From assembly GCA_963718525.1 (NCBI GenBank), contig OY970355.1:2272001-2336000 (forward strand): a stretch of DNA of 64,000 bases. Reading direction: 5' to 3'. The translations under genes were made by a program, and so were the position numbers. Positions within the stretch are counted from its first letter, which is position 1, and each line of letters begins with the position of its first letter. The stretch comes from Candidatus Dormiibacterota bacterium. GTDB lineage: Bacteria; Chloroflexota; Dormibacteria; Aeolococcales; Aeolococcaceae. The notes beneath the pieces are model-generated. The model had not been told where the DNA came from and searched no databases. It worked only from the letters and a program-made list of their open reading frames with translations. Shown here piece by piece: positions 19,440-30,898 of the stretch.

Positions 19440-19610
19440 GAGGCGAAGGCGCTTGTTGGGCGACGGGTAGCTGCCGAACTCGTTCGGTGAAGACGAGATC
19501 GTGGTGGGTCCAAATTGAATCGGCGCGCAATCGCTCATCGACCTGCGCAGTCGGGGTTCACGGAGGGCAGACACAGCCTGCGGGGGCCGAGTGCGACGGC
19601 CCCGGACCCT
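19440..19610 (-). pseudogene. Tyrosine recombinase (phage/ICE integrase) remnant
   Basis: Joining frames gives VALG-PQAVSALRE-RTAQVDERLRADSIWTHHDLVFT-NEFGSYP, typical of the region between box I and box II of Tn916/phage integrases. Confidence 0.65.
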
Positions 19611-19759
19611 CCGCACGAGCGCACATGGCCAGCTTCGGAGGACATGAACCGATCGAAGCGCTCGCTGCAGTTGCTCTGTTTCTCTATACTGTGACGAGCC
19701 CACGTCGGCGAGCGACGCGGTGGAAGCCTGGCAGAGAATTGAGGGGACAAGGGAAAATC

Positions 19760-22700
19760 GTGTCTGGGGGCATCCATCCGAAAAGCCGCACGTCCGGATT
19801 CCGGCGGGTCGCTGTCGTCCTGGCCGGACTCGGCTCGTTTGCGGGCCTGTGGTCCGCTAGCGGAGCCACCGCCGCGCTTGCCGCGTCCAAGGCTGCGACC
19901 GCGACCCACGCGGCCACGACTATCAAGGCCGGCGCGGCCACCACGCAGGACTGGCCGACGTACCTGCACGATGTCGCGCGAACGAGCGACAGCGGCGACG
20001 CGACCATGAGTTCGGCGAACGTTCAGTTCCTGCAGAAGAAGTTCACCGTGGTCACGGGCGGCGTCATCGCCGCCGAACCGGCGATCGTCAATGGCATTGC
20101 CTACGTCGGCTCGTGGGACGGCTACGAGTACGCGATCAATGCGAACACGGGCACGGTCATTTGGAAGACCTTCCTCGGGACGATCACCGATCCCCCCTGC
20201 GCGCCTCCGAATGCGGGCATCACCTCGTCCGCGACCGTTTACAACGGCGTCGTCTACGTCGGTGGCGGGAACGACGCGCACGGCGAGGAGCAGTGGTACG
20301 CATTGTCCTCAGCGACCGGCGCGATGCTCTGGAACGTCCCCACCGGCCTCGGCCCAGTGGCCGGTGCGTACTACAACTGGTCGAGTCCGCTCATCATCAC
20401 CGATCCAGCGGACGGGCTCGCGTACGCGTACATCGGCACGGCCAGCGTTTGCGACGCGCCCCTCGTTCCGGGCCAGCTGCTGAAGGTCTCGCTGACGACG
20501 CACCAGGTGGTCGCCATCACACCGATGGTCCCGACCGGGCAGGTGGGCGGCGGCATCTGGACCTCACCCACGTACGACGCCACGACCAACAGGATCTTCG
20601 TCTCCACAGGGACGCTCAACCTCTACTCACAAACGCTGTCCCAGGCGGTTGTGGCCATCAATGCCACGACGATGGCTGTCGTCGATCACTGGCAGCTGCC
20701 GTTCGAGGCGGCGGTGAGCGACTCGGACTGGGGGACGACGCCGACGCTCACGACGGACGCGAATGGCGACCAGCTCGTGAGTCTGGCGAACAAGAACGGC
20801 ATTCTCTACACGCTCAACCGCAACAACATGGCGGCAGGGCCCGTGTGGCAGAGCCAGATCGCCTACGGGGGTGATTGCCCGACATGCGGTGACGGCTCGA
20901 TCGCCTCGGGCGCTTTTGCCAACGGCGTCCTGTACTACGCCGGCGGAAGCAACAGCGACGCCAACGGCATCGGTCATGGGGGCTCGGTCACCGCCTTCAA
21001 CGCAGGCACCGGCGCGGTGCTCTGGAAGCACGAGACGAACTCTCCTGTTCTCGGCTCCATCATCTACGACAACGGTCTGATCTTCGACGGCCAGGGCTCC
21101 ATCATCGAGGCGCTGAGCGCGGCCACGGGGGCGTCCCTCTGGACGTACAACCTCGGAGCGGGCACGTACGGCGCGCCTGCCGACGCCAACGGCATGCTGT
21201 ACCTGGGCGTGGTCAACGGTGACTTCTTCGGATTCGGCCTGCCCGCGACACTCCCGGGCTCGCCGCCCCCCGATCCCAACTGCCCAACGGGCTTCACGTG
21301 TCAGGACATCGGCAGTCCGCGGATTCCCGGCAGCGAGGTACTCAACGGCGATGGGAGCGTCACGGTCACGGCGTCGGGAAACGGCCGTACCCAGGGCGAT
21401 CAGATGCGCATCATCACCGAGCCCGCGAGTGGTGACTTCCAGATCTCCGTTGAGGACATGTCGGAAACGGTCGGCAATCTCACCGGGTTCAGTCAGCCGC
21501 AGCTGGGGATAGTCATCCGTCAGAGCGCAGCGCTCGGCGCCCCGTTCTACACGGCGCTGCAGGATCCGACGTACCCGGGCGAGGGCGAGACCGTCGCCAA
21601 CGTGATCATGTACTACCGCGACACCTGGGGCGGTCCCGTCGTGGAGCTGACGCAGAATTACCCTCTCGCCTTCCCGCGGTACCTCATGGTTCAGCGCCAC
21701 GGCGACAGCTTCCAGACGCTGTTCAGCTCCAACGGAACGAACTACACACTCATCAGCGCAACGGTGCACACGCTGGTGATGCCCACGACGGTTTTGGCTG
21801 GCGTCGGGGTTGCTTCGGGGACACCCACGGCGACGACCACAGCCGTGTACCAGAAGCTCGTCATCGGGCCCCCAACGCAGACCTACGTCGAGCAAAATGA
21901 GGCTCACGCGTGCCCGCCGGGATGGTCCTGCACGGACGTCGGGGCCGGCTCGCCCATCGGCGACGAGACCTTGGTGAATGGCGTCTGGACCATCTCCGGA
22001 GGTGGCGAGGGAATCAACCTCGCTGCGGACGGCATCGGTAATAACCGGATCGCCGACCAGTTCCACTATGTGTACAAGCCGATGACCGGCGACGCAACCG
22101 TCACCGCACGGCTCACGTCGATCGCAAATGGCAGCGCGACCGCGCAGGCAACGCTGATGATGCGCGCCGACACATCCATCGGCTCGCCCTTCTACGGTGT
22201 GGTGGTGACGCCCAACCTCGCGGCGACCATCGAGTGGCGGACCAACAACCTCATCCAGCAGCGGGTGACGATTCCCGTCGGCACGCTGACGCTACCGGCG
22301 TGGTTCCAGATCAACCGCTACACCGACACAACCCAGTCACCCGCAGTGACGTATTACAGCCTGCTCACCTCGACCAACGGGACGACCTGGGCCGAGGTCA
22401 ACGGTTCCACCGTCGCTCTCAATCTCGGTGCGCACCCACTTGCCGGCATCGGCGGCTCGCAGGCCACCCCGCGTGCGCTCAACAGGTCGACGTGGGACAA
22501 CGTCAGCATCTCCACCGTCAGCACGAAGCCGCCGGGCGTGTGCCCGCAGGGCTACACGTGTCAGGACGTCGGCGACGGCTACCAGTCGGGAAGCCAGGAG
22601 TTCAGCGGTAGCGGCACGTGGACCTTCTCCGCTGGTGGCCCGGACATCTGGGACGTGTACGACTTCTTCCACTTCGTCTCCCAGACGCTCACCGGCGACG

Positions 22701-24901
22701 GCACAGTGAGTGCACAGGTCACGTCTGCGGGTCCGGTGAATTACGACGCCGAGTGGCAGAAATCCGGTGTGATGCTGCGAGGATCCAGCGACCCTCAGTC
22801 ACCCTATTACGGCGTGTTCGTCACGCCGCAGCACGGGTTGGCGGTGCAGTGGCGAACGACCCAGGCAGGCTTGACCAGTCAGGTGCTTGCGCCCGGCCCG
22901 TCACCGGCGTACCCGGTGTACCTGATGATCGGTCGGTGGACGGACCCGCACCCGGGCGGTCAGACGTACTACACGGCCTACTGGTCGACCGACAACCTCA
23001 ACTTCACGGCGATCCCCGGCTCCACAGTGGCGCTGAGCCTGCCTGCAACGGTGCTGGCCGGCATGGCAGCGGATTCGTACAACGAGAAGACAACCTTCCC
23101 GGTTGTCTTCAACGCCTTCGCGATCTTCAGTGATACCGAGCCGGTACCTCCGGGCGCCTGTCCGGCGAGCGTCGCCGGGTGTGCGGACATCGGCGGCGCG
23201 GCGCCGGCCGGCGTGCAGACGCTCGCCAACGGCACGCTCACGATGACCGTCGGCGGCGGTGACATCTGGCTCGGGGCCGATCAGATGCACCTCGTCTGGC
23301 AGAACCTTGCCGGTGACGGCGTGGTCAGCGCGCGAATCGTCTCGCAGCAGAACACCGGTGGCTGGGCCAAGGCAGGGGTGATGATGCGGGCCACCACCGA
23401 CCCAGGCTCGCCCTACTACGCCGTCTTCGTCACACCGAGCAACGGCATCGCCGTCCAGTACCGCTCCACGGCCGGCGCAATCACCGCACAGATCGTGATC
23501 CCGGGCACCACGCCGGCATACCTCGAGGTGGGTCGCTACACCGACAGTGCCGGCACTGCGTGGTACACCGCGTACACCTCTACTGACGGCACCACGTGGA
23601 CAGTGGTTGCGGGGTCCACGGTGGCGCTGGCGATGCCGGGCCCGTTGCTCGCCGGCTGGGGTGGTGACTCGACGAGCCAGACGACGGGCAGCCAGATCGT
23701 CTTCGACACCCTGGCCGTTAGCGCGGGCGCCTCCGCGCCCCCCGGGCTGTGTCCATCCGGCTGGGTCTGCGCGGACCTCGGGGGTGCGACCCCTGCTGGA
23801 GGTCAGAGCCTCTCTGGAGGCGCATGGACCGTCTCCGGCGGCGGCGGCGACATCTGGGGTGCCAGCGACCAATTCCGCTTTATCGATGCACCGGCACGCG
23901 GTGACGGCACCATCAGCGCCGAGGTCATGACCCAGCAGGCGACGAACCCCTGGGCGAAAGCGGGCGTGATGATGCGCAGCACCGTGGATCCCGCTTCCCC
24001 GTACTACGCCGTCCTGGCCACTCCCGCCAATGGAGTCATCGTGCAGTGGCGCACCACGCAGGGCGGTGCGACCAGCCAGCTCGCAGTCCCGGGCACTGTC
24101 CCGGTCTACGTCGAGGTGTCGCGGTGGACCGACACCAGCGGCACGACGCCGGTGACGTACTACTCCGCGCTCACGTCACCGGACGGCGTCACATGGACGA
24201 CCGTTCCGGGCTCCGCCGTGGCCATGACCCTGCAGACGAACTATCTCGATGGCCTCGCGGTGACCTCGCACGACACCAGCCAGCTGAGTAGCGTTGGGCT
24301 CAAAGCGGTGCAGATCGGCACGACGTCGACGGAACCGCCAGGTGTCTGCGGCGCCGCATACACCTGCGCCGACATCGGTTCGGCCACCCCCGCCGGGAAT
24401 CAGACACAGACGCCCACAGGATGGACCATCGAGGGCGGCGGCGGTGACATTGCCGGGACGAGCGACCAGTTCCGGTTCATCGAGCAGCCGCTGCCCGGAG
24501 ATGGCACCGTCAGCGCACGGCTGGTGTCGCTGAGCAATGCCAATGCCTGGACCAAGGCGGGCCTTATGGTGCGCTCCGATGCGACTGCGGGAGCCGCGTA
24601 CTACGCAGTGATGCTGACGCCGGCCAATGGCCTGGTGGTGCAGTACCGCAATGCCGCCGGCGCCGTCACGAACCAGCCGGTCCTGCTCAGTGGGCCGGCG
24701 GCGCCGCTCTACCTCAGCGTGACGCGAACTGGCACGACATTCTCCGCGTCGACGTCGCCCGACGGCGTCACCTGGACACCCGTCGCCGGCTCCTCCGTGC
24801 CGCTGAGCGGTCTCTCGGGAACGCTGCTCGCCGGAATGGCCGTCACGTCGCACGACACCAGCCTGCTTGCCACCGCGATCTTCAACGCAGTCAACATCTG
24901 A
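19760..24901 (+). CDS. Large secreted protein: PQQ-type beta-propeller plus six tandem ConA/DUF1349-like beta-sandwich domains
   Basis: Probable GTG start 19760 after GAGGGG; signal peptide; DWPTY..D..RT and G..(L/V)W propeller repeats; six ~200-aa units beginning CPxGxxCxDIG with GGGDIW..DQF..GDGTVSA..WAKAGVMMR. Confidence 0.85.
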   Translation: MSGGIHPKSRTSGFRRVAVVLAGLGSFAGLWSASGATAALAASKAATATHAATTIKAGAATTQDWPTYLHDVARTSDSGDATMSSANVQFLQKKFTVVTGGVIAAEPAIVNGIAYVGSWDGYEYAINANTGTVIWKTFLGTITDPPCAPPNAGITSSATVYNGVVYVGGGNDAHGEEQWYALSSATGAMLWNVPTGLGPVAGAYYNWSSPLIITDPADGLAYAYIGTASVCDAPLVPGQLLKVSLTTHQVVAITPMVPTGQVGGGIWTSPTYDATTNRIFVSTGTLNLYSQTLSQAVVAINATTMAVVDHWQLPFEAAVSDSDWGTTPTLTTDANGDQLVSLANKNGILYTLNRNNMAAGPVWQSQIAYGGDCPTCGDGSIASGAFANGVLYYAGGSNSDANGIGHGGSVTAFNAGTGAVLWKHETNSPVLGSIIYDNGLIFDGQGSIIEALSAATGASLWTYNLGAGTYGAPADANGMLYLGVVNGDFFGFGLPATLPGSPPPDPNCPTGFTCQDIGSPRIPGSEVLNGDGSVTVTASGNGRTQGDQMRIITEPASGDFQISVEDMSETVGNLTGFSQPQLGIVIRQSAALGAPFYTALQDPTYPGEGETVANVIMYYRDTWGGPVVELTQNYPLAFPRYLMVQRHGDSFQTLFSSNGTNYTLISATVHTLVMPTTVLAGVGVASGTPTATTTAVYQKLVIGPPTQTYVEQNEAHACPPGWSCTDVGAGSPIGDETLVNGVWTISGGGEGINLAADGIGNNRIADQFHYVYKPMTGDATVTARLTSIANGSATAQATLMMRADTSIGSPFYGVVVTPNLAATIEWRTNNLIQQRVTIPVGTLTLPAWFQINRYTDTTQSPAVTYYSLLTSTNGTTWAEVNGSTVALNLGAHPLAGIGGSQATPRALNRSTWDNVSISTVSTKPPGVCPQGYTCQDVGDGYQSGSQEFSGSGTWTFSAGGPDIWDVYDFFHFVSQTLTGDGTVSAQVTSAGPVNYDAEWQKSGVMLRGSSDPQSPYYGVFVTPQHGLAVQWRTTQAGLTSQVLAPGPSPAYPVYLMIGRWTDPHPGGQTYYTAYWSTDNLNFTAIPGSTVALSLPATVLAGMAADSYNEKTTFPVVFNAFAIFSDTEPVPPGACPASVAGCADIGGAAPAGVQTLANGTLTMTVGGGDIWLGADQMHLVWQNLAGDGVVSARIVSQQNTGGWAKAGVMMRATTDPGSPYYAVFVTPSNGIAVQYRSTAGAITAQIVIPGTTPAYLEVGRYTDSAGTAWYTAYTSTDGTTWTVVAGSTVALAMPGPLLAGWGGDSTSQTTGSQIVFDTLAVSAGASAPPGLCPSGWVCADLGGATPAGGQSLSGGAWTVSGGGGDIWGASDQFRFIDAPARGDGTISAEVMTQQATNPWAKAGVMMRSTVDPASPYYAVLATPANGVIVQWRTTQGGATSQLAVPGTVPVYVEVSRWTDTSGTTPVTYYSALTSPDGVTWTTVPGSAVAMTLQTNYLDGLAVTSHDTSQLSSVGLKAVQIGTTSTEPPGVCGAAYTCADIGSATPAGNQTQTPTGWTIEGGGGDIAGTSDQFRFIEQPLPGDGTVSARLVSLSNANAWTKAGLMVRSDATAGAAYYAVMLTPANGLVVQYRNAAGAVTNQPVLLSGPAAPLYLSVTRTGTTFSASTSPDGVTWTPVAGSSVPLSGLSGTLLAGMAVTSHDTSLLATAIFNAVNI

Positions 24902-24919: not shown

Positions 24920-26170
24920 CTACGGACGGCACACTCGCGCTGCGGCGAATGTCGCCGGCGTCGCCGGGCCGATGTCGTAGCTCGTCGGTGCGACCTGGTA
25001 TCCGAGGTTCCAGAAGTTCGCTCCACTCGACCCCTCAGTGAAGATGGTCTGGCACATGTCGCGTAACTCGGTAGCCCGTGCCGTGTCGCCTTCAGACTGC
25101 TGCCACCCGAACTCCTCGTCGATCCATGGTTTGCCGATCGACGCGCAGTACGCGGCAATCGTTCCGGAATACGCAAGCATGCCCCCGTACGTCTTGATAT
25201 CGCAGAGGTCGACCGTCGGCAGCGCGAAGATCGCCTTCCAGTCAATGCCGGACGTGGGTTCGTTGAGATATCCGAGGCCACCCGGATTCACCGCGACGGT
25301 CGCGCCGAGCCGCTTCCACAACCCCGTGGTGCGAGCGTAGAAATCGGTCAGCTCCTGCGTCGTGTAGGAGAGCGTGCAGTCCTGCCCGGTCGCGGGCGCC
25401 ATGAAGGTGTGACTCCCCACCGGGAGCGGTTCGCCGCTGATGCCGAGCGTGGCAATCGTCGGATCGTCCGCGTAGAGCCGGCCCGTGACGGTGTTGCGCC
25501 GCGTGGCGACGAACCTGATGAACGCTGTCCAGTCTGAGGTGTAAGGATTGATGCAACTGTTCCACTGAATATTCCGATAGTCACTGAGGTCCAGGTCGAC
25601 GTGCAGACCAGCCGCTCCTGCGTCAGCGATCATCTGGTCGACCTGCTCCCACGTCGTTTCGGCGTATGGCGTCGAGGACGGGATGCCGTCGTCTGAGAAG
25701 AAGTTGACGATGCGGATGGTGTCCAGCCCGGCCCGTTGCGCGAGCGCCACCGTGCCCATCGGGTTGAGGAACCCGGACTGTTCCGGGCGTAGTCCCGGGT
25801 TGTAGACGCTCGCCCCGTTCATGTACCAGGGCGACCCGTTCTCGCACAGGTGCGTGGCGCACACGGTCACCTCGGCGGGAGCCTGCTCCTTCGCGGGCGT
25901 CGTGGTGGGCGTCCCGGTCGGCGGTGCCGTGACATGCGCGGTGCCGTCCGGGTTTGGCCCAGCTGCGTGATCACGCAGCACGAGCACAGCAGACAGCGCG
26001 GCGACGAGCACCACTGCTGCTGCCCCCGCGAGGCGTCGGCTCCTACCTGGATTGATGGCGCTCCTCCGACGGCTCTCGCTGGCGTTCTCCGCGGCCAGTC
26101 TCGGGTTCCCGAAAGCCTCACCCCGGGTTGTATAGGATGTGCGGGTCTCAGCCGATGACGCCTGGCCCAC
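24920..26170 (-). CDS. Membrane-anchored GH5-like glycoside hydrolase (mannanase/cellulase clan GH-A), catalytic residues present
   Basis: DTIR, RRNTVTGRLYADDPTI..SGEP (acid/base Glu), KPWIDEEFG (nucleophile Glu), ANFWN. Confidence 0.8.
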   Translation of the reverse strand: MGQASSAETRTSYTTRGEAFGNPRLAAENASESRRRSAINPGRSRRLAGAAAVVLVAALSAVLVLRDHAAGPNPDGTAHVTAPPTGTPTTTPAKEQAPAEVTVCATHLCENGSPWYMNGASVYNPGLRPEQSGFLNPMGTVALAQRAGLDTIRIVNFFSDDGIPSSTPYAETTWEQVDQMIADAGAAGLHVDLDLSDYRNIQWNSCINPYTSDWTAFIRFVATRRNTVTGRLYADDPTIATLGISGEPLPVGSHTFMAPATGQDCTLSYTTQELTDFYARTTGLWKRLGATVAVNPGGLGYLNEPTSGIDWKAIFALPTVDLCDIKTYGGMLAYSGTIAAYCASIGKPWIDEEFGWQQSEGDTARATELRDMCQTIFTEGSSGANFWNLGYQVAPTSYDIGPATPATFAAARVCRP

Positions 26171-26286
26171 GGGAGAGTGCCGGATCCGAGCATTCGACGA
26201 CGAAGTTGCAGCGAGCCGTTACGACGGCGTTACAACCGGCGGCCTGAGAGGCGGGCTCCGGCCATCGTCGACCCTATGCTTCGCGA

Positions 26287-26367
26287 GGCCACGACAAGAG
26301 CAAAACCTCCGTGAGAAGGCGACGCAAAGCCACGGGTCTCAACGTGAGACAGCCGGGTTAGCGAAGG
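26287..26367 (+). ncRNA. c-di-GMP-I (GEMM) family riboswitch, A20 variant
   Basis: GGCCACGACAAGAGCAAAACCTCC-GTGA-GAAGGCGACGCAAAGCCACGGGTCTC..GAGACAGCCGGGTTAGCGAAGG: GNRA loop, GACGCAAAGC junction and P3 all match GEMM; -10 TATGCT at 26275-26280; 28 nt before ATG 26396. Confidence 0.85.
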
Positions 26368-26395
26368 ATCGTGGGTCCCGGCAATCGGAGCCCAG

Positions 26396-27637
26396 ATGAT
26401 CAGAGCGCTGTCCGCTACCACCGTTGTCCTGATCGCAACTGCTGCGTGGGGCGCCACCACTGAGTCTTCCCGCCAGCTGACCAGCTCCCCGCAGAGCACG
26501 AGCCCAGGCCCGGCTACGATCTCGCCACCGCGCGTGTCGTCAGGCACGCACCGCGTCAAGCATCCGGTCCCGAAGAGCATCCACACTCCTGAGCCCATGC
26601 CGACGACGGGTCCTACGCCAACTCCTGTCGCGACTTCGACGCCGTCACCTACTCCCATCGCCACACCTCCTCCGAGCCCGAGCTCCTCGCCGCCGACTTC
26701 GTCCTTCGTCACGGTGTGCGGAACGGCGTTGTGCGCGGGTGGCGTGCGGTTCGACGAACGAGGTGCGACGGCCTACGGGCAGTACAGCAACCCGGCGGGC
26801 GTGGTCGCGCTCGCCCGGCGGGCGAATCTCAACACGCTCGAGCTCGTCGAATTCGACACGCGGTACCACACGCTCTCGGACACGGAGTCGAGCGCAACCT
26901 GGGACCGCGTCGACGCCTTCATCGCCGCCGCCCATGCCGGAGGGTTGCACGTCATCCTCAACCTGAGCGAGTACGGCCAGTCACTGCAGGCAGCCGGTCA
27001 TCCGCCGGTCACGACCGACTGGGGTCCGTATCTCAGCTTCATCGCTAACCGTGTCAACACGGTGAGCGGGATCAGGTACGCCGATGATCCGACGATCGCC
27101 ATGGTGGAGTTGTGGGGAGAGATCCCTGCGCCGAACTATCCGAATCCCGTCGGGACCACCCAGCAGATCACCGACTTCTATACCCGGTCGCTCGCCGAAT
27201 GGCACGCGGACGCGCCCAATATCCTCGTCAGCAGCGGCGGCTTCTCGTACATCAACGATCCACACAGCGGGATCGACTGGAAGACGATTATGGCCGATCC
27301 CGGCAACGCCGCCTGCGACGTCGAGGTCAACTCAACCGCCGATCTGAGTGTCAGCGTCCCGAGCGTCTCCTCATACTGCCAATCGCTGGGGAAGCCGTGG
27401 TTCCTCGCAGCGTGGAGCTCGTGCTTCGGGGCGTCTCGGGGCGCATGGGATCTCGATCACTGGTCTTCCGATGCTGCGATGGCCGCGCACGCCAGGGTGA
27501 TGGTCGACGTCGCGGACGGTGTGTCCGAAGCGGCGCCCTTGGGCGACGATTTCTGGAACATCGGCGACACCGCGGCGGTCACGGGAACGTGCGACATCGG
27601 CCCGCAGTTTCCGCTCACCTTCGCCGCGATCGAGTAG
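26396..27637 (+). CDS. Secreted GH5-like paralog lacking the nucleophile Glu
   Basis: Signal peptide, Pro/Thr linker, RVNTVSGIRYADDPTIAMVELWGE; KPWFLAAWS where the paralog has KPWIDEEFG. Confidence 0.8.
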   Translation: MIRALSATTVVLIATAAWGATTESSRQLTSSPQSTSPGPATISPPRVSSGTHRVKHPVPKSIHTPEPMPTTGPTPTPVATSTPSPTPIATPPPSPSSSPPTSSFVTVCGTALCAGGVRFDERGATAYGQYSNPAGVVALARRANLNTLELVEFDTRYHTLSDTESSATWDRVDAFIAAAHAGGLHVILNLSEYGQSLQAAGHPPVTTDWGPYLSFIANRVNTVSGIRYADDPTIAMVELWGEIPAPNYPNPVGTTQQITDFYTRSLAEWHADAPNILVSSGGFSYINDPHSGIDWKTIMADPGNAACDVEVNSTADLSVSVPSVSSYCQSLGKPWFLAAWSSCFGASRGAWDLDHWSSDAAMAAHARVMVDVADGVSEAAPLGDDFWNIGDTAAVTGTCDIGPQFPLTFAAIE

Positions 27638-27659: not shown

Positions 27660-29399
27660 TCAGCCCGTCCCGGTCACCCGGTACAACCGCCAGTTGGTCG
27701 CGTCGTCGCTGACGCTGTTGAACTGCTTGACCAGCGTTCCCAGGTCGCCGCCGTTGGCATAGGCGCCTGGGTACGCGCGGTTGATGGCGTCGAGCTTGCC
27801 GAGCGCCTGTTCCGACGGCACCAGGAAGTAGCGCACGCCGTTGCCGGCCGGATCGGCGAGCACCTGCTGGAAGTCGCGGTCCGAAGTGATCACGTACTGC
27901 TGCGTGTTCGACGATGACATCACGATGTCGAATCCGAGGAAGTCGTCGACGAGCACCGTTCCCCGGCCGAGGCGCAGCGAGTCGACGTACTGGCTCACCT
28001 GGTGATCGGTGACGAATCGCAACGACGCCAGGCGTTCGGCCTGGGTGAGCGGTCCGCGCCGGACCAGCGCGTGGAGCTCCGCCGCGTACCCGACATTGAT
28101 CGTCGGATCCATGACAGCACGGTATCCGGCCTGGACCGAGAGCGACATCAGGACAATCCCTGCCACGGCGGCCACGGTTGTGCCACCGGTCCATAGCCAG
28201 GTCAACCACCGATTGCGCGGTTCGGGCTCGGGTCGGTGCGTGGCGAGCTGAGGCGAGCCGGCCGTGCTCCTGCGGGTGAGCGTGATGCCGACCATCAGAA
28301 TCACCAGTGGAATCACGACGATGAAGTATCGGAGCAGCTGGAGCACGCTGCCGCTGACCTGTGCCCAGAACATGAACGCGAGGACCGCGCCGAGCACCGC
28401 CGGTGTCGCTAGGGCAACCCAGTCGCGCCGCCACACAACCACGGCGACGCACGCAACGATGACTATGGGCAGGAACGGTTCGAGGGCGAGCATCCAGTGC
28501 AGCGCCTGACTCGAGGCGGCAACCTCCTGTCCCAGCGTGAGCGACGTCGACAGCCCGCGCGACTGCAACTGCGCGGCGTTGCCGTAGCTGGACGACAACT
28601 GCTGAAACGCCGTGCCGGTGATCAGCCAGCTCGTCAGAGCCCAGAGCACGAACGCAGTCGCAAACGGGGCAACGACGATGAACGAGTTAAGCAGTGCGGC
28701 GCGCACGCGCGGACGCGTCGCGCTCGTGGTGCGCATGAACGTGGCGAAACCGACAATGACCACAACCGCCGCCGCAGCCGCCGTTGCCTCATATCGCGAG
28801 AGATAGAGCATGGCCAGGTAGAACGCCGTGCTGACGAGCGCTGAGATCTCCTGTGTCCGTAACCAGCGCTGCAGATGGCGCGCCACCAGCAGGAGGAAGA
28901 AGATGAACATCGCCTCGCTCATCGAGTTGACGGCATAGAGAACAATCATTGGATGCAACGCGAAGGTCGCAGTCAGCAGCCAGCGCACCCAGCGGCGTAC
29001 CCCAACCTCCTCCAGGAAGCGATAGACCTGATACGCGGCGCCGGCCATGAAGAGCGCGGACACGATGTTGCCGGCGAACGCATCCTGCACCAGGGCAGGC
29101 CATACGGACTTGAGCGCCACCAACGGCACCAGGACGAGCTCCGGAAGCGGACTCCACACGAATCCAACCGCCGCAAGGTGGGGATCGCCGCTGAACAGGA
29201 TGCGATTGGCGATGGCCACGCGCGATACCCCATCCTGACCGAGACCCTGACTATGGACGATCAACGTGACGTAGAAGGCGATAGCCAGGTAGACGGCCAG
29301 GCACGACCAGAACCAGATCAGCGCATCCGACGGCCGGTGCAGCCGGATCAGCCGGCGTGGGATCGCAACGAAACGAGGTCGCAGCGCGATCGCCTGCAT
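27660..29399 (-). CDS. GT-C fold (GT39/PMT-like) integral membrane glycosyltransferase
   Basis: About 11-12 TM; DGVSR in first loop, GFVWSPLP, NSMSE, SRYE; C-terminal extracytoplasmic domain. Confidence 0.75.
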   Translation of the reverse strand: MQAIALRPRFVAIPRRLIRLHRPSDALIWFWSCLAVYLAIAFYVTLIVHSQGLGQDGVSRVAIANRILFSGDPHLAAVGFVWSPLPELVLVPLVALKSVWPALVQDAFAGNIVSALFMAGAAYQVYRFLEEVGVRRWVRWLLTATFALHPMIVLYAVNSMSEAMFIFFLLLVARHLQRWLRTQEISALVSTAFYLAMLYLSRYEATAAAAAVVVIVGFATFMRTTSATRPRVRAALLNSFIVVAPFATAFVLWALTSWLITGTAFQQLSSSYGNAAQLQSRGLSTSLTLGQEVAASSQALHWMLALEPFLPIVIVACVAVVVWRRDWVALATPAVLGAVLAFMFWAQVSGSVLQLLRYFIVVIPLVILMVGITLTRRSTAGSPQLATHRPEPEPRNRWLTWLWTGGTTVAAVAGIVLMSLSVQAGYRAVMDPTINVGYAAELHALVRRGPLTQAERLASLRFVTDHQVSQYVDSLRLGRGTVLVDDFLGFDIVMSSSNTQQYVITSDRDFQQVLADPAGNGVRYFLVPSEQALGKLDAINRAYPGAYANGGDLGTLVKQFNSVSDDATNWRLYRVTGTG

Positions 29400-29401
29400 G
29401 G

Positions 29402-30898
29402 TCAGGCCTCCGCCTCGACGACACGCGCGCGGTCGAGGCCGTGCGCGGTCTTCTCCCAGAAGAACGGAGAGATCAGCAGTTGCAGGAACGCCCGCAACGC
29501 ACCGACCGATATGAGTATCCAGTACACCGGGGCGAGCACCGCGGCCTTCATGAGCTCAGGCCGACCGGCGGCGCGGATGACGATGAAATCAACATACATC
29601 GCGAGGAAGTTGCCCGCGATCATGGATGCCAGCCCGGGGAAGTACACCCAGGACGGAAAGATGCTCTGGATGAAGGTCGGGTGAAGGAAGAACCACGCGA
29701 GGGTCAGTGCCCAGAACACTGGGTTGAGCAGAGCGGTGAGCGTCGTTGCGCCAACCAGCATGTTGAACCCGCAGAAGCCGCGGCCACCAAGCTCGCGCCA
29801 GAGACGGCGTGGATCACGCATATGCACCAGCCAGGTCTGCGCGTACCCCTTGTACCAGCGCGAGCGCTGCTTGATCCAGTTGATGGCGTCGCTGTTGGCT
29901 TCCTCGTATGTTGTCGAATCGAGAAACTCGGTCCGGTATCCCATCCGGTACAACCGGACGCCGAGGTCACAGTCCTCGGTGACGTTGAACGGATCCCAGC
30001 CGCCGATCTCCTCAAGCACGGAGCGGCGCATGTGCATGGACGTGCCGCCCAACGGTACAGGCGTGGCGCCACCCGCGATCGCCGGCAGGGAGAATCCGAA
30101 CCAGGCCAGGTACTCAATTGCAAACCACGAGGTGAGTAGGTTCTGATGGGGGTTGTGGTACTCGAGCCGTGCCTGGAGGCATGCCACCGGCGGTGCCGCG
30201 CGCGAGAACGCGACCACTGCCCGGCGCAGCTGCAGGGGTTCGGGGCGATCCTCGGCGTCGTAGATGGTGATCAGCTCGCCGCGAGCGCGGAGCAGGCCGA
30301 AGTTGAGCGCCTTCGGCTTGGTGCGCGGCTGACTCGGGGGCACGAGCACGACCTCGACGTTGACGGCCGGATGCGCCGCGAGCACTGCGGAGCGTGTGGC
30401 GTCGTCGTCGGCCTCGAGCAGGAGCTTGATATCGAGCAGGTGCGCCGGATAGTCCAGCCCTGCGAGCGAGCGAAGTGTCCTGGCAATCACCTCGGGTTCG
30501 TGATATGCGGCGATCATCACCGTGTACACGGGCAGCTGATCGTCCGGTATCGCACGCGCTTCCTCGTCCGTCACCGACACGACGTGAGGCGCGTGGATGA
30601 GCCGGCGAAACACGCCCACGTTGCTCGCGAACACCAGGAGGTACACCGCCGCGATGCATCCGGAGAGGGCGATGCCGGTGCCGATCGGCGCAACCAAGAA
30701 GCCGAGGATGCAGGCAGCTAGGATGCCGAGGATGACGAGACCCTGTCTCTGGTTGAGGACGCGGCTCGCAGAGAGTTCGGGATGGCGAAGACGGAGTCCG
30801 TCGACAGCCACTGCAGTCGCCTCATCGGGACTCAGCGTCCCCACAGGCGCGTCCATCGTGCGGCGTGCACCCTTGCGCGGGCGCTTGGTGACTGGCAT
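29402..30898 (-). CDS. Processive GT2 beta-glycan synthase-like glycosyltransferase
   Basis: KPKALN, YDAED, VTED, QRSRW (QxxRW), N- and C-terminal TM helices; no PilZ domain. Confidence 0.9.
   Translation of the reverse strand: MPVTKRPRKGARRTMDAPVGTLSPDEATAVAVDGLRLRHPELSASRVLNQRQGLVILGILAACILGFLVAPIGTGIALSGCIAAVYLLVFASNVGVFRRLIHAPHVVSVTDEEARAIPDDQLPVYTVMIAAYHEPEVIARTLRSLAGLDYPAHLLDIKLLLEADDDATRSAVLAAHPAVNVEVVLVPPSQPRTKPKALNFGLLRARGELITIYDAEDRPEPLQLRRAVVAFSRAAPPVACLQARLEYHNPHQNLLTSWFAIEYLAWFGFSLPAIAGGATPVPLGGTSMHMRRSVLEEIGGWDPFNVTEDCDLGVRLYRMGYRTEFLDSTTYEEANSDAINWIKQRSRWYKGYAQTWLVHMRDPRRLWRELGGRGFCGFNMLVGATTLTALLNPVFWALTLAWFFLHPTFIQSIFPSWVYFPGLASMIAGNFLAMYVDFIVIRAAGRPELMKAAVLAPVYWILISVGALRAFLQLLISPFFWEKTAHGLDRARVVEAEA

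Follow-up and report, generated by a model that had tools for sequence, protein, structure and literature searches.

A strain-level C92G substitution in an A20-type GEMM-I riboswitch of a soil Dormibacterota bacterium most likely damages the sensor rather than creating a new one

When both of the bases with which a class-I cyclic-dinucleotide (GEMM-I) riboswitch reads its ligand depart from the c-di-GMP consensus, has the RNA acquired a new specificity, or is it losing its function? This question is raised by a leader RNA whose positions 20 and 92 (Vc2 numbering) are A and G and which is located within a 64-kb stretch of Dormibacterota DNA (hereafter the window, meaning the whole stretch that was analysed). 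An earlier note, made from the sequence alone, had proposed that G92 shifts recognition toward another, possibly pyrimidine-containing, cyclic dinucleotide, and had offered degeneration of the switch as an alternative. As detailed below, comparison with orthologous leaders, closely related strains, and predicted folds indicates that G92 most likely marks the impairment of a sensor, not the origin of a new one.

An A20 GEMM-I aptamer and its ligand pocket

A search of the window with cmscan returned a single Rfam match, that of the c-di-GMP-I (GEMM-I) family RF01051 at 26289-26365 (+), which spans the full model (1-87) with a score of 58.1 bits (E 9.2e-09; gathering score 35 bits) and bears out the assignment made in the earlier note. 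The same element is the only GEMM-I copy in the whole 3.34-Mb single-contig genome, and a covariance model built from the genus (R1) gives it 75.4 bits. The GEMM-I secondary structure is formed throughout, with the exception of two of the six pairs of P2. The stretch 26289-26365 is a genuine GEMM-I riboswitch of the A20 subtype; with both strands of P1 included, as supported by RF01051, R1, and homology to the Vc2 pairs, the aptamer extends over 26289-26367 (+), the addition to the P1 3' strand resting on homology to Vc2 G14-C93 and C13-G94 and on covariation in a related group of A20 aptamers (the L115 group, described below).

Numbering of the aptamer was checked against the Vc2 pair list, which includes G21-C46, C22-G45, G14-C93, C13-G94, A12-U96, and G11-C97, the tertiary pair C44-G83, and the pairing of a ligand guanine with C92 (PMC11705072). 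In the model alignment, position 20, the pocket base that reads the alpha nucleobase, is A26299, directly 5' of the G26300-C26325 and C26301-G26324 pairs; A47, which intercalates between the two ligand bases, is A26326, directly 3' of C26325; and position 92, the site that pairs Watson-Crick with the beta guanine of the ligand, is G26361, located between U90/A91 (26359/26360) and C26362 (C93). These assignments agree to the base with the manual alignment of the earlier note. The roles of G20, A47, and C92 in the GEMM-I pocket are stated in PMC6140456, according to which G20 contacts the ligand guanine via a purine-purine pair and A20 is the mark of cGAMP-binding GEMM-Ib RNAs, while the roles of A47 and C44-G83 are described in PMC9049102 and PMC11705072. 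In place of the G20 of the c-di-GMP class, whose contact is with the Hoogsteen edge of one ligand guanine, the window aptamer has A26299, the GEMM-Ib or bispecific base, which is kept in all seven orthologous leaders; in place of the C92 common to the c-di-GMP class and GEMM-Ib it has G26361. The equivalents of A47, C44, and G83 (A26326, C26323, and G26352) are present, and are invariant in an alignment of 29 aptamers (A1, described below).

The two peripheral hairpins differ in what they reveal. P2 (26305-26320, +), capped by the GNRA loop GUGA, contains the two mismatches reported in the earlier note, now confirmed as A26305/C26320 and C26309/A26316; both are lineage-specific A/C mismatches, and the orthologs form all six pairs. 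P3 (26328-26359, +) carries an AG bulge at 26351-52, within which lies G26352, the equivalent of the G83 that pairs with C44 (PMC11705072). The resemblance of P3 to that of Geobacter GEMM-Ib, to which the earlier note had drawn attention, is without diagnostic value because 74 aptamers with G20/C92 carry the identical string, and the string was ruled out as a GEMM-Ib marker on that basis.

Comparison with characterized systems places this RNA firmly on the GEMM-I scaffold. Like Vc2 of Vibrio cholerae (RF01051, 3IRW), it has a three-helix junction, the G21-C46 and C22-G45 pairs, A47 and the C44-G83 bases, a GNRA loop on P2, and a P1 that begins with G14-C93 and C13-G94 beside a bulged-A region. 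Unlike Vc2, it has A20 instead of G and G92 instead of C, two mismatches in P2, a short P3 in which no 11-nt tetraloop receptor is obvious by eye, and a predicted translational platform composed of a sequestor of the Shine-Dalgarno (SD) sequence and AUG together with an anti-sequestor. A20 is shared with GEMM-Ib of Geobacter (Gs1761; 4YAZ), the regulon of which has a similar polysaccharide or surface-related gene context (PMC6456294), and with the bispecific Cbe 1-2 RNA of Clostridium beijerinckii; in GEMM-Ib RNAs, however, the guanine of cGAMP still finds its pairing partner in a retained C, where G is found here. Among the engineered Vc2 pocket mutants (G20A, 3MUM; C92U, 3MUR; G20A/C92U, 3MUT), the double mutant likewise has both ligand-reading positions altered together, but its position 92 is U, and it gains c-di-AMP binding and loses affinity for c-di-GMP (PMC9049102). 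As is true of the Rfam families c-di-GMP-I-GGC and c-di-GMP-I-UAU (clan CL00126), the present RNA is a variant of a common scaffold. Those families, which are named by their three pocket bases, such that this RNA would be 'AAG', are recurrent, conserved classes, whereas 'AAG' is a single-strain allele and Rfam assigns the RNA to the parent family. We file it as an A20 GEMM-I member in Dormibacterota with a strain-level pocket mutation, and not as a new variant class.

Position 92 among relatives and strains

GEMM-I elements are present in 21 of 42 genomes of the genus and in one of 24 genomes of the neighbouring family. Alignment A1 comprises 29 aptamers, 28 of them from the genus (the window aptamer included) and one from a related genus; its cells are paired according to the Rfam structure in 96.6% of cases, with nine pairs changed on both sides, values that none of 500 shuffles reached, and slid controls were 25-48% paired. 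Position 92 is C in 28 of the 29, and G in the window aptamer only. Orthologous leaders, recognized by a common downstream gene and leader layout (L002, L003, L004, L028/L186, L183, L185, and the metagenome contig L119; n=7), have both C92 and A20 in every case; their Rfam scores include 66.8 bits (L002), 65.9 (L003), 66.0 (L004), and 30.4 (L028/L186), as compared to 58.1 for the window.

A wider sample was obtained by an exact-pattern scan of metagenome contigs, with 80 loci read of at least 120 matching stretches, and was aligned with a covariance model built from A1. Among 90 aptamers besides that of the window, a tally that retains eight weak matches under 31 bits, G20/C92 was observed in 74, A20/C92 in 10, G20/U92 in three, and G20/A92 in one (a weak 29-bit match); G at position 92 was seen in L073, an unrelated and 5'-truncated metagenomic aptamer, and one more ends before that position. 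G92 is very rare and forms no clade. As judged from the aligned relatives, it is shown to be derived, and not a conserved feature.

Evidence at the level of strains was gathered by mapping contigs from four public runs (X1, X5, X6, and X7) onto 26100-26700. In X1, the likely source run (depth about 7), G is read at 26361 with 0 differences over the entire interval, and in X6, an independent study, a 151-nt contig (26335-26485) likewise has G and 0 differences. C is read at 26361 in two contigs of X5, the near-identical one of which (26317-26478) has four differences, and in a contig of X7 (26262-26412) that differs from the window at 26361 and 26405 only and shares both P2 mismatches with it. 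Excluded from the allele call as other GEMM-I copies or relatives were X5 contig 3 (eight differences) and two fragments from X7, the short contigs 10 and 11, with four differences each. That the true base is C, and G an error of sequencing or assembly, might be suspected of a substitution that is a singleton among relatives and was read from a single-contig metagenome-derived assembly, but since the independently assembled contigs of X1 and X6 both read G, this suspicion retains scarcely any probability. C92G is shown to be a real, recent, single-letter change that is polymorphic within the species and, because the X7 contig combines both P2 mismatches with C92, the mismatches came first and C92G later. 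The G noticed in the earlier note stands, being present in two studies, while the shifted, possibly pyrimidine-reading specificity that was built upon it is not supported, as C is found at this position in the orthologs (7/7), an outcome that the note itself had set as its refutation, and in near-identical strains from two other studies.

Alignment A1 additionally contains a set of aptamers that vary at position 20. C is found there in 14 of the 29, all of which keep C92 and all of which also have A19, U or C at position 43, and G91; G82 accompanies these in 12 of the 14 as compared to none of the 15 others. Two C20 aptamers that were checked precede proteins of the Phosphoesterase family (PF04185) and two others precede proteins without a Pfam match. 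When 401 genomes from across the phylum were sampled, one of them, a member of this genus, contained the exact pattern of the subclass, and a literature search for a G20C riboswitch, narrow in scope, found no such class described. For those seeking a sensor that is truly altered, this conserved subclass may be a better place to look.

Gene context, ligand, and expression platform

The aptamer lies 30 nt upstream of the gene it is predicted to regulate, an intact ORF of 413 aa (26396-27637, +) whose product is predicted to be secreted and distantly GH5-mannanase-like. Inspection by eye shows a hydrophobic segment at the N terminus of the protein and a linker rich in Pro, Ser, and Thr; a Pfam search with it gave no match, and a structural-database search gave a weak match to a GH5 mannanase (PDB 8gf3_A, E 7.1e-05). 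Orthologs of 411-416 aa with 82-86% identity are found in L002-L004, and relatives occur in Candidatus Dormibacteraeota/Dormiibacterota MAGs, in one Saccharimonadales record, and, as a more distant match, in one Acidimicrobiales record. A divergent paralogue of 416 aa (24920-26170, -; BLASTP 36% identity, E 2e-53) has no detected riboswitch of its own, there being only one GEMM-I match within the window. On the other side of the regulated gene lie two polysaccharide-synthesis neighbours (27660-30898, -), one (27660-29399) encoding a large glycosyltransferase-like membrane protein and the other (29402-30898) a processive GT2 synthase, for which a Pfam match to Glyco_tranf_2_3 (E 1.2e-29) was obtained, along with NCBIfam matches (CelA, PgaC, and the LA_3751 family) that are weak and below cut-off. 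The riboswitch gene sits in an exopolysaccharide-type cluster of a soil Dormibacterota bacterium. A scan of 26050-26500 for sigma-70-type promoters returned 0 sites, such a consensus being uninformative for this phylum, and only 0.04 of sampled words were contained in one public RNA run.

With respect to the ligand, the genome contains 33 GGDEF domain matches and one DAC domain (c-di-AMP). In Hypr GGDEF enzymes, which make cGAMP, Ser348 replaces Asp at the signature position (PMC6456294); at this position the 33 domains have Asp in 31 cases and Asn in one, another cannot be read, and Ser or Thr occurs nowhere. A search of the 3.34-Mb genome (completeness 88.9%) for SMODS (PF18144) found none, and a genome search for the DncV-like PF21654 gave no match, a result that says little because the control matched no genome. 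Unlike GEMM-Ib systems, then, this RNA resides in a Dormibacterota host in which no cGAMP synthase was found by these searches, and the Hypr-GGDEF or CD-NTase genes contemplated in the earlier note did not emerge from them. The presence of A20 alone does not mean cGAMP selectivity, as G20A Vc2 has affinities of 53 nM for c-di-GMP and 120 nM for cGAMP, and Cbe 1-2, a natural A20 RNA, has affinities of 30 nM and 463 nM, respectively (PMC6140456). Because 33 GGDEF domains and no cGAMP synthase were found, the ancestral ligand was probably c-di-GMP, which fits the polysaccharide context. As for G92, the G20A/C92U mutant binds at 4900 nM as compared to 0.011 nM for the wild type (quoted in PMC9049102), and C92U reduces riboswitch function in V. 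cholerae in vivo (bioRxiv 10.1101/617340); a full-text literature search for a C92G riboswitch found no report. By analogy with these mutants, G92 would be expected to reduce binding.

The architecture of the leader suggests how ligand binding would be coupled to expression. The P1 5' strand, CCACG (26289-26293, +), can pair with either 26362-26367 or 26369-26374. The former, CGAAGG, is the P1 3' strand, with which it forms G26293-C26362, C26292-G26363, C26290-G26366, and C26289-G26367, a layout that, by homology to Vc2, consists of G-C and C-G, an A/AA internal loop, and then C-G and C-G; this register is supported by a related A20 group (L115, L091, L109, and L105), in which P1 is CUCCCG/CGAAGGAG with the same AA bulge. 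The latter, UCGUGG (TCGTGG in the DNA), is a perfect 6-bp complement of CCACGA (26289-26294), the 5' half of the anti-sequestor, which overlaps the P1 5' strand. In addition, UCGUGG contributes to the 5' arm of a predicted sequestor hairpin (26367-26401, +) that pairs the SD sequence GGAG (26387-90) and the AUG (26396-98). The CCACGA/UCGUGG pairing is kept in 7/7 orthologous leaders, once with a G-U wobble and once in a displaced or bulged register; no true covariation was seen in the platform helices.

Predicted folds are consistent with these two mutually exclusive arrangements. The sequestor is present in the minimum free energy (MFE) folds of the window, L002, L003, L004, and L119, and forms again when the window and L002-L004 are constrained to a bound-like fold: with the aptamer and P1 constrained, the sequestor forms and both SD and AUG are paired, and with the distal pairing constrained, AUG is unpaired and SD is partly or wholly unpaired. 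In L002-L004 the bound-like and anti-sequestor states differ by no more than about 2 kcal/mol (-42.2/-40.2, -40.7/-41.3, and -36.6/-38.8 kcal/mol, respectively), as expected of a switch. The unconstrained whole-leader MFE is without the aptamer fold in the window and has the sequestor in every ortholog, so that any switching must be kinetic, taking place during transcription, and thermodynamics alone cannot decide the direction of the switch, for which the constrained folds were used. In a decayed sister clade, the P1 3' strand CGAAGG has become CAGG while the distal pairing is retained, once with A-U changed to G-U and once in a displaced register; loss of the P1 3' strand with retention of the anti-sequestor fits a leader that is ON by default and OFF when ligand is bound. 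The proposal in the earlier note that CCACGA/TCGTGG serves as an expression platform is thus strengthened by its persistence in orthologs and by the constrained folds. In intact orthologs the RNA would, on this model, act as a translational OFF switch: upon ligand binding, P1 (26289-93 with 26362-67) would form and release UCGUGG (26369-74), which would join the hairpin at 26367-26401, burying SD and AUG and turning translation off, and when ligand is absent the P1 5' strand would pair with UCGUGG, leaving the ribosome-binding site open.

Relaxed constraint and the interpretation of G92

Of the 77 positions of the aptamer, 4 (5.2%) have changed along the window's branch: G became A at 26305 and at 26316, each time breaking a P2 pair; position 92 (26361) went from C to G; and C became T at 26345, which closes the P3 loop. 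Over the same branch the downstream ORF accumulated 30 changes at its 410 third codon positions (7.3%), 16 at first positions, and 12 at second positions, suggesting that the window aptamer evolves at about the synonymous rate. L002-L004 together have seven lineage-specific aptamer changes and 0 broken pairs, five of the changes being in paired columns, all keeping a standard pair, and two in the P3 loop. That all three damaging changes should fall among the window's 4 of these 11 has a chance of 4/165 (about 0.024), a hand calculation on small counts. Folded alone (79 nt), the aptamers of L002, L003, L004, and L119 have exactly the GEMM-I fold as their MFE (-26.4 to -27.9 kcal/mol), while in the window this fold reaches -18.1 kcal/mol and a different one wins at -22.9. 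The sister clade is in advanced decay, its leaders scoring 51.4, 23.0, and 16.5 bits with R1 and having many broken pairs, and its downstream gene is full-length (query residues 1-412 matched, 72-83% identity). The degeneration that the earlier note had entertained as its second choice is favored by each of these lines of evidence: the lineage-specific P2 mismatches and C92G set against structure-preserving changes in three orthologs, the displaced fold minimum, and the state of the sister clade.

In the lineage of this strain, then, P2 lost two pairs through two G-to-A changes, and C92, the base pairing with the ligand guanine, was later replaced by G, still polymorphic within the species; the resulting aptamer would likely bind its ligand poorly or not at all. 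Since a G facing the ligand guanine has no Watson-Crick pair, and given A20 and a weakened P2, weak or no binding is to be expected, and under the OFF model this would lead to constitutive expression of the gene. More speculatively, a G26361-C26295 pair might form and shut the pocket when ligand is absent. G92 is most likely a damaged sensor, not a new one, and the broader proposition that an A20-type GEMM-I translational OFF switch is losing its sensing, with its gene de-repressed, is a probable one that leaves appreciable room for doubt. Several observations feed that doubt. Since the wild type binds with picomolar affinity, the ligand levels of a cell could suffice to elicit a response even from a damaged pocket; the G allele, occurring in two studies, cannot be strongly deleterious and might even be favored; and the intact platform and gene, together with a compensated A-U pair gained in P3, indicate a leader that is not simply rotting. 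Furthermore, A/C pairs can form protonated wobbles, such that nearest-neighbour energies may overstate the damage to P2, the C92 strain of X7 also has the P2 mismatches, which alone may therefore be tolerated, and the comparison of rates draws on a small sample (4 vs 7 changes).

Some of these same observations would be accommodated by a sensor that still works but has been retuned, in which A20/G92 still recognizes c-di-GMP or cGAMP, making a G-G contact other than Watson-Crick at the beta site, and the weaker affinity raises the level of signal needed to shut the gene off. GEMM-I RNAs have a large reserve of affinity, the wild type being picomolar and pocket mutants ranging from nM to µM (PMC6140456, PMC9049102), and a purine-purine pair is how G20 itself reads the ligand guanine (PMC6140456). 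Position 92 varies naturally, with U92 accompanying G20 in 3/90 metagenomic aptamers, the G allele is present in two studies, and the platform, SD, start codon, and gene are all intact. G92 is fixed nowhere, however, being absent from the seven orthologous leaders and the 28 other aligned aptamers (0/7 and 0/28), and it arose after P2 had lost two pairs, in an aptamer that is now predicted to prefer a fold other than that of GEMM-I. With a purine-purine pair stacking on P1, the pocket would presumably be distorted, and no compensating change is seen, the X7 contig differing at 26361 and 26405 only. On balance, a retuned sensor is unlikely, though it deserves to be taken seriously.

Considerably bolder is the idea of a new specificity, in which a pyrimidine of the ligand is recognized by G92, as C through a Watson-Crick pair or as U through a wobble, and an adenine by A20, the ligand being a purine-pyrimidine cyclic dinucleotide of, for example, the cAMP-CMP or cUMP-AMP type. 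A reversed Watson-Crick G-C pair is isosteric with a C-G pair, and the pairing of G92 with a ligand C would thus be isosteric with that of C92 and a ligand G. There is precedent for a single pocket change switching the ligand of this scaffold, in the form of A20 for cGAMP (PMC6140456, PMC6456294); moreover, the allele is real and present in two studies, and the unrelated, 5'-truncated L073 also has G at 92. Against these points stand the lack of conservation, C92 being found in 7/7 orthologous leaders and in near-identical strains; the failure to find SMODS, DncV-like, or Hypr GGDEF domains in the genome (completeness 88.9%, with the PF21654 search uncontrolled); the selection by GGDEF enzymes against pyrimidine substrates (PMC6456294); the destabilized P2; and the lack of an accompanying change in the pocket. 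Such a specificity is very improbable. That A20/G92 is a working one-step specificity switch that couples a glycanase-like gene to a signal other than c-di-GMP can be credited with even less; if true, the signal could be, for example, a CD-NTase product from another cell or from a mobile element outside the assembly.

If G92 is indeed a damaged sensor, the locus would offer a clean natural example of a riboswitch being lost while its gene is kept. The stages of decay would form a series that runs from intact orthologs, through a species with two broken P2 pairs and the G92 strain within it, to the barely recognizable aptamer of the sister clade, with the half of the platform that keeps the gene on preserved throughout. 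The G/C polymorphism provides a natural allele pair with which to measure the effect of a purine at position 92 on the GEMM-I pocket, a subject on which no report was found. For the hunting of variant riboswitches more generally, the locus carries a caution, in that a change at a ligand-contact position can mimic a new specificity until orthologs and strain data are checked.

A position-20 cytosine subclass and natural variation at position 92

Among the 29 aligned GEMM-I aptamers, 28 of which come from the genus and one from a related genus, 14 carry C at position 20 (Vc2 numbering) and compose a conserved subclass. Specifically, these C20 aptamers lie at approximately 1501-1581 of loci L006, L007, L010, L012, L014, L015, L017, L019 and L021 to L024, at 1386-1466 of L008, and at 486-565 of L018, and in some genomes two copies are found about 1.6 kb apart. 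All 14 possess A19, U or C at position 43, and G91, and all retain both C92 and A47, while G82 is observed in 12 of the 14 and in none of the 15 non-C20 copies. When 401 genomes of the phylum were searched for the exact pattern of the subclass, matches were confined to this genus. Ligand recognition may be altered in this variant; the co-variation of C20 with G82 hints at a new contact.

Variation at position 92 was surveyed in a metagenome sample of 90 aptamers other than that of the window. A single further G92 was found, on the reverse strand of an unrelated contig (L073:369-440), in an aptamer with U at position 93 (..GGGCUGGUGAA); the contig edge cuts off the 5' end of this aptamer, such that position 20 falls outside the contig. 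Natural aptamers combining G20 with U92 account for three of the 90 (L116:370-452, L080:372-452 and L111:263-336), indicating that U at position 92, unlike G, recurs in nature.

Decayed leaders in the sister clade

Orthologous leaders of the sister clade display progressive decay of the aptamer, with scores of 51.4 bits (L183:490-572), 23.0 bits (L185:498-573) and 16.5 bits (L186:496-572) against R1, the covariance model built from the 29-aptamer alignment. In these leaders the 3' strand of P1 is shortened, the CCRCGA/TCGTGG pairing and the Shine-Dalgarno region are retained, and the downstream gene is full-length (72-83% identity).

Proteins encoded near GEMM-I copies

Secreted-looking proteins of approximately 390-480 amino acids are encoded downstream of other GEMM-I copies in the genus. 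Proteins in this position include putative glycoside hydrolases GHL15 (L009, L027), a rhamnogalacturonase/pectate-lyase-like protein (L005) and Phosphoesterase-family (PF04185) proteins (L024, L015); in a Pfam scan of nine proteins behind GEMM-I copies, four were without a match.

Directly upstream of the paralogue pair in the window lies a very long ORF (19487-24901, forward strand; 1804 amino acids as listed from a GTG), in which a PQQ/BamB-like beta-propeller region at the N-terminus (seen by eye and in NCBIfam matches) is followed by several module repeats of about 190 amino acids, each starting, by eye, with a Cys-containing motif.

Comparison of the paralogues revealed that KPWIDEEFGW of the divergent copy, the motif in which the nucleophile glutamate of GH5 enzymes usually lies, corresponds to KPWFLAAWSSCFG in the riboswitch-controlled protein (ORF 26396-27637; site at 27380-27420, residues ~329-342) and in its orthologs. 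The riboswitch-controlled protein may lack hydrolytic activity or rely on a different residue.
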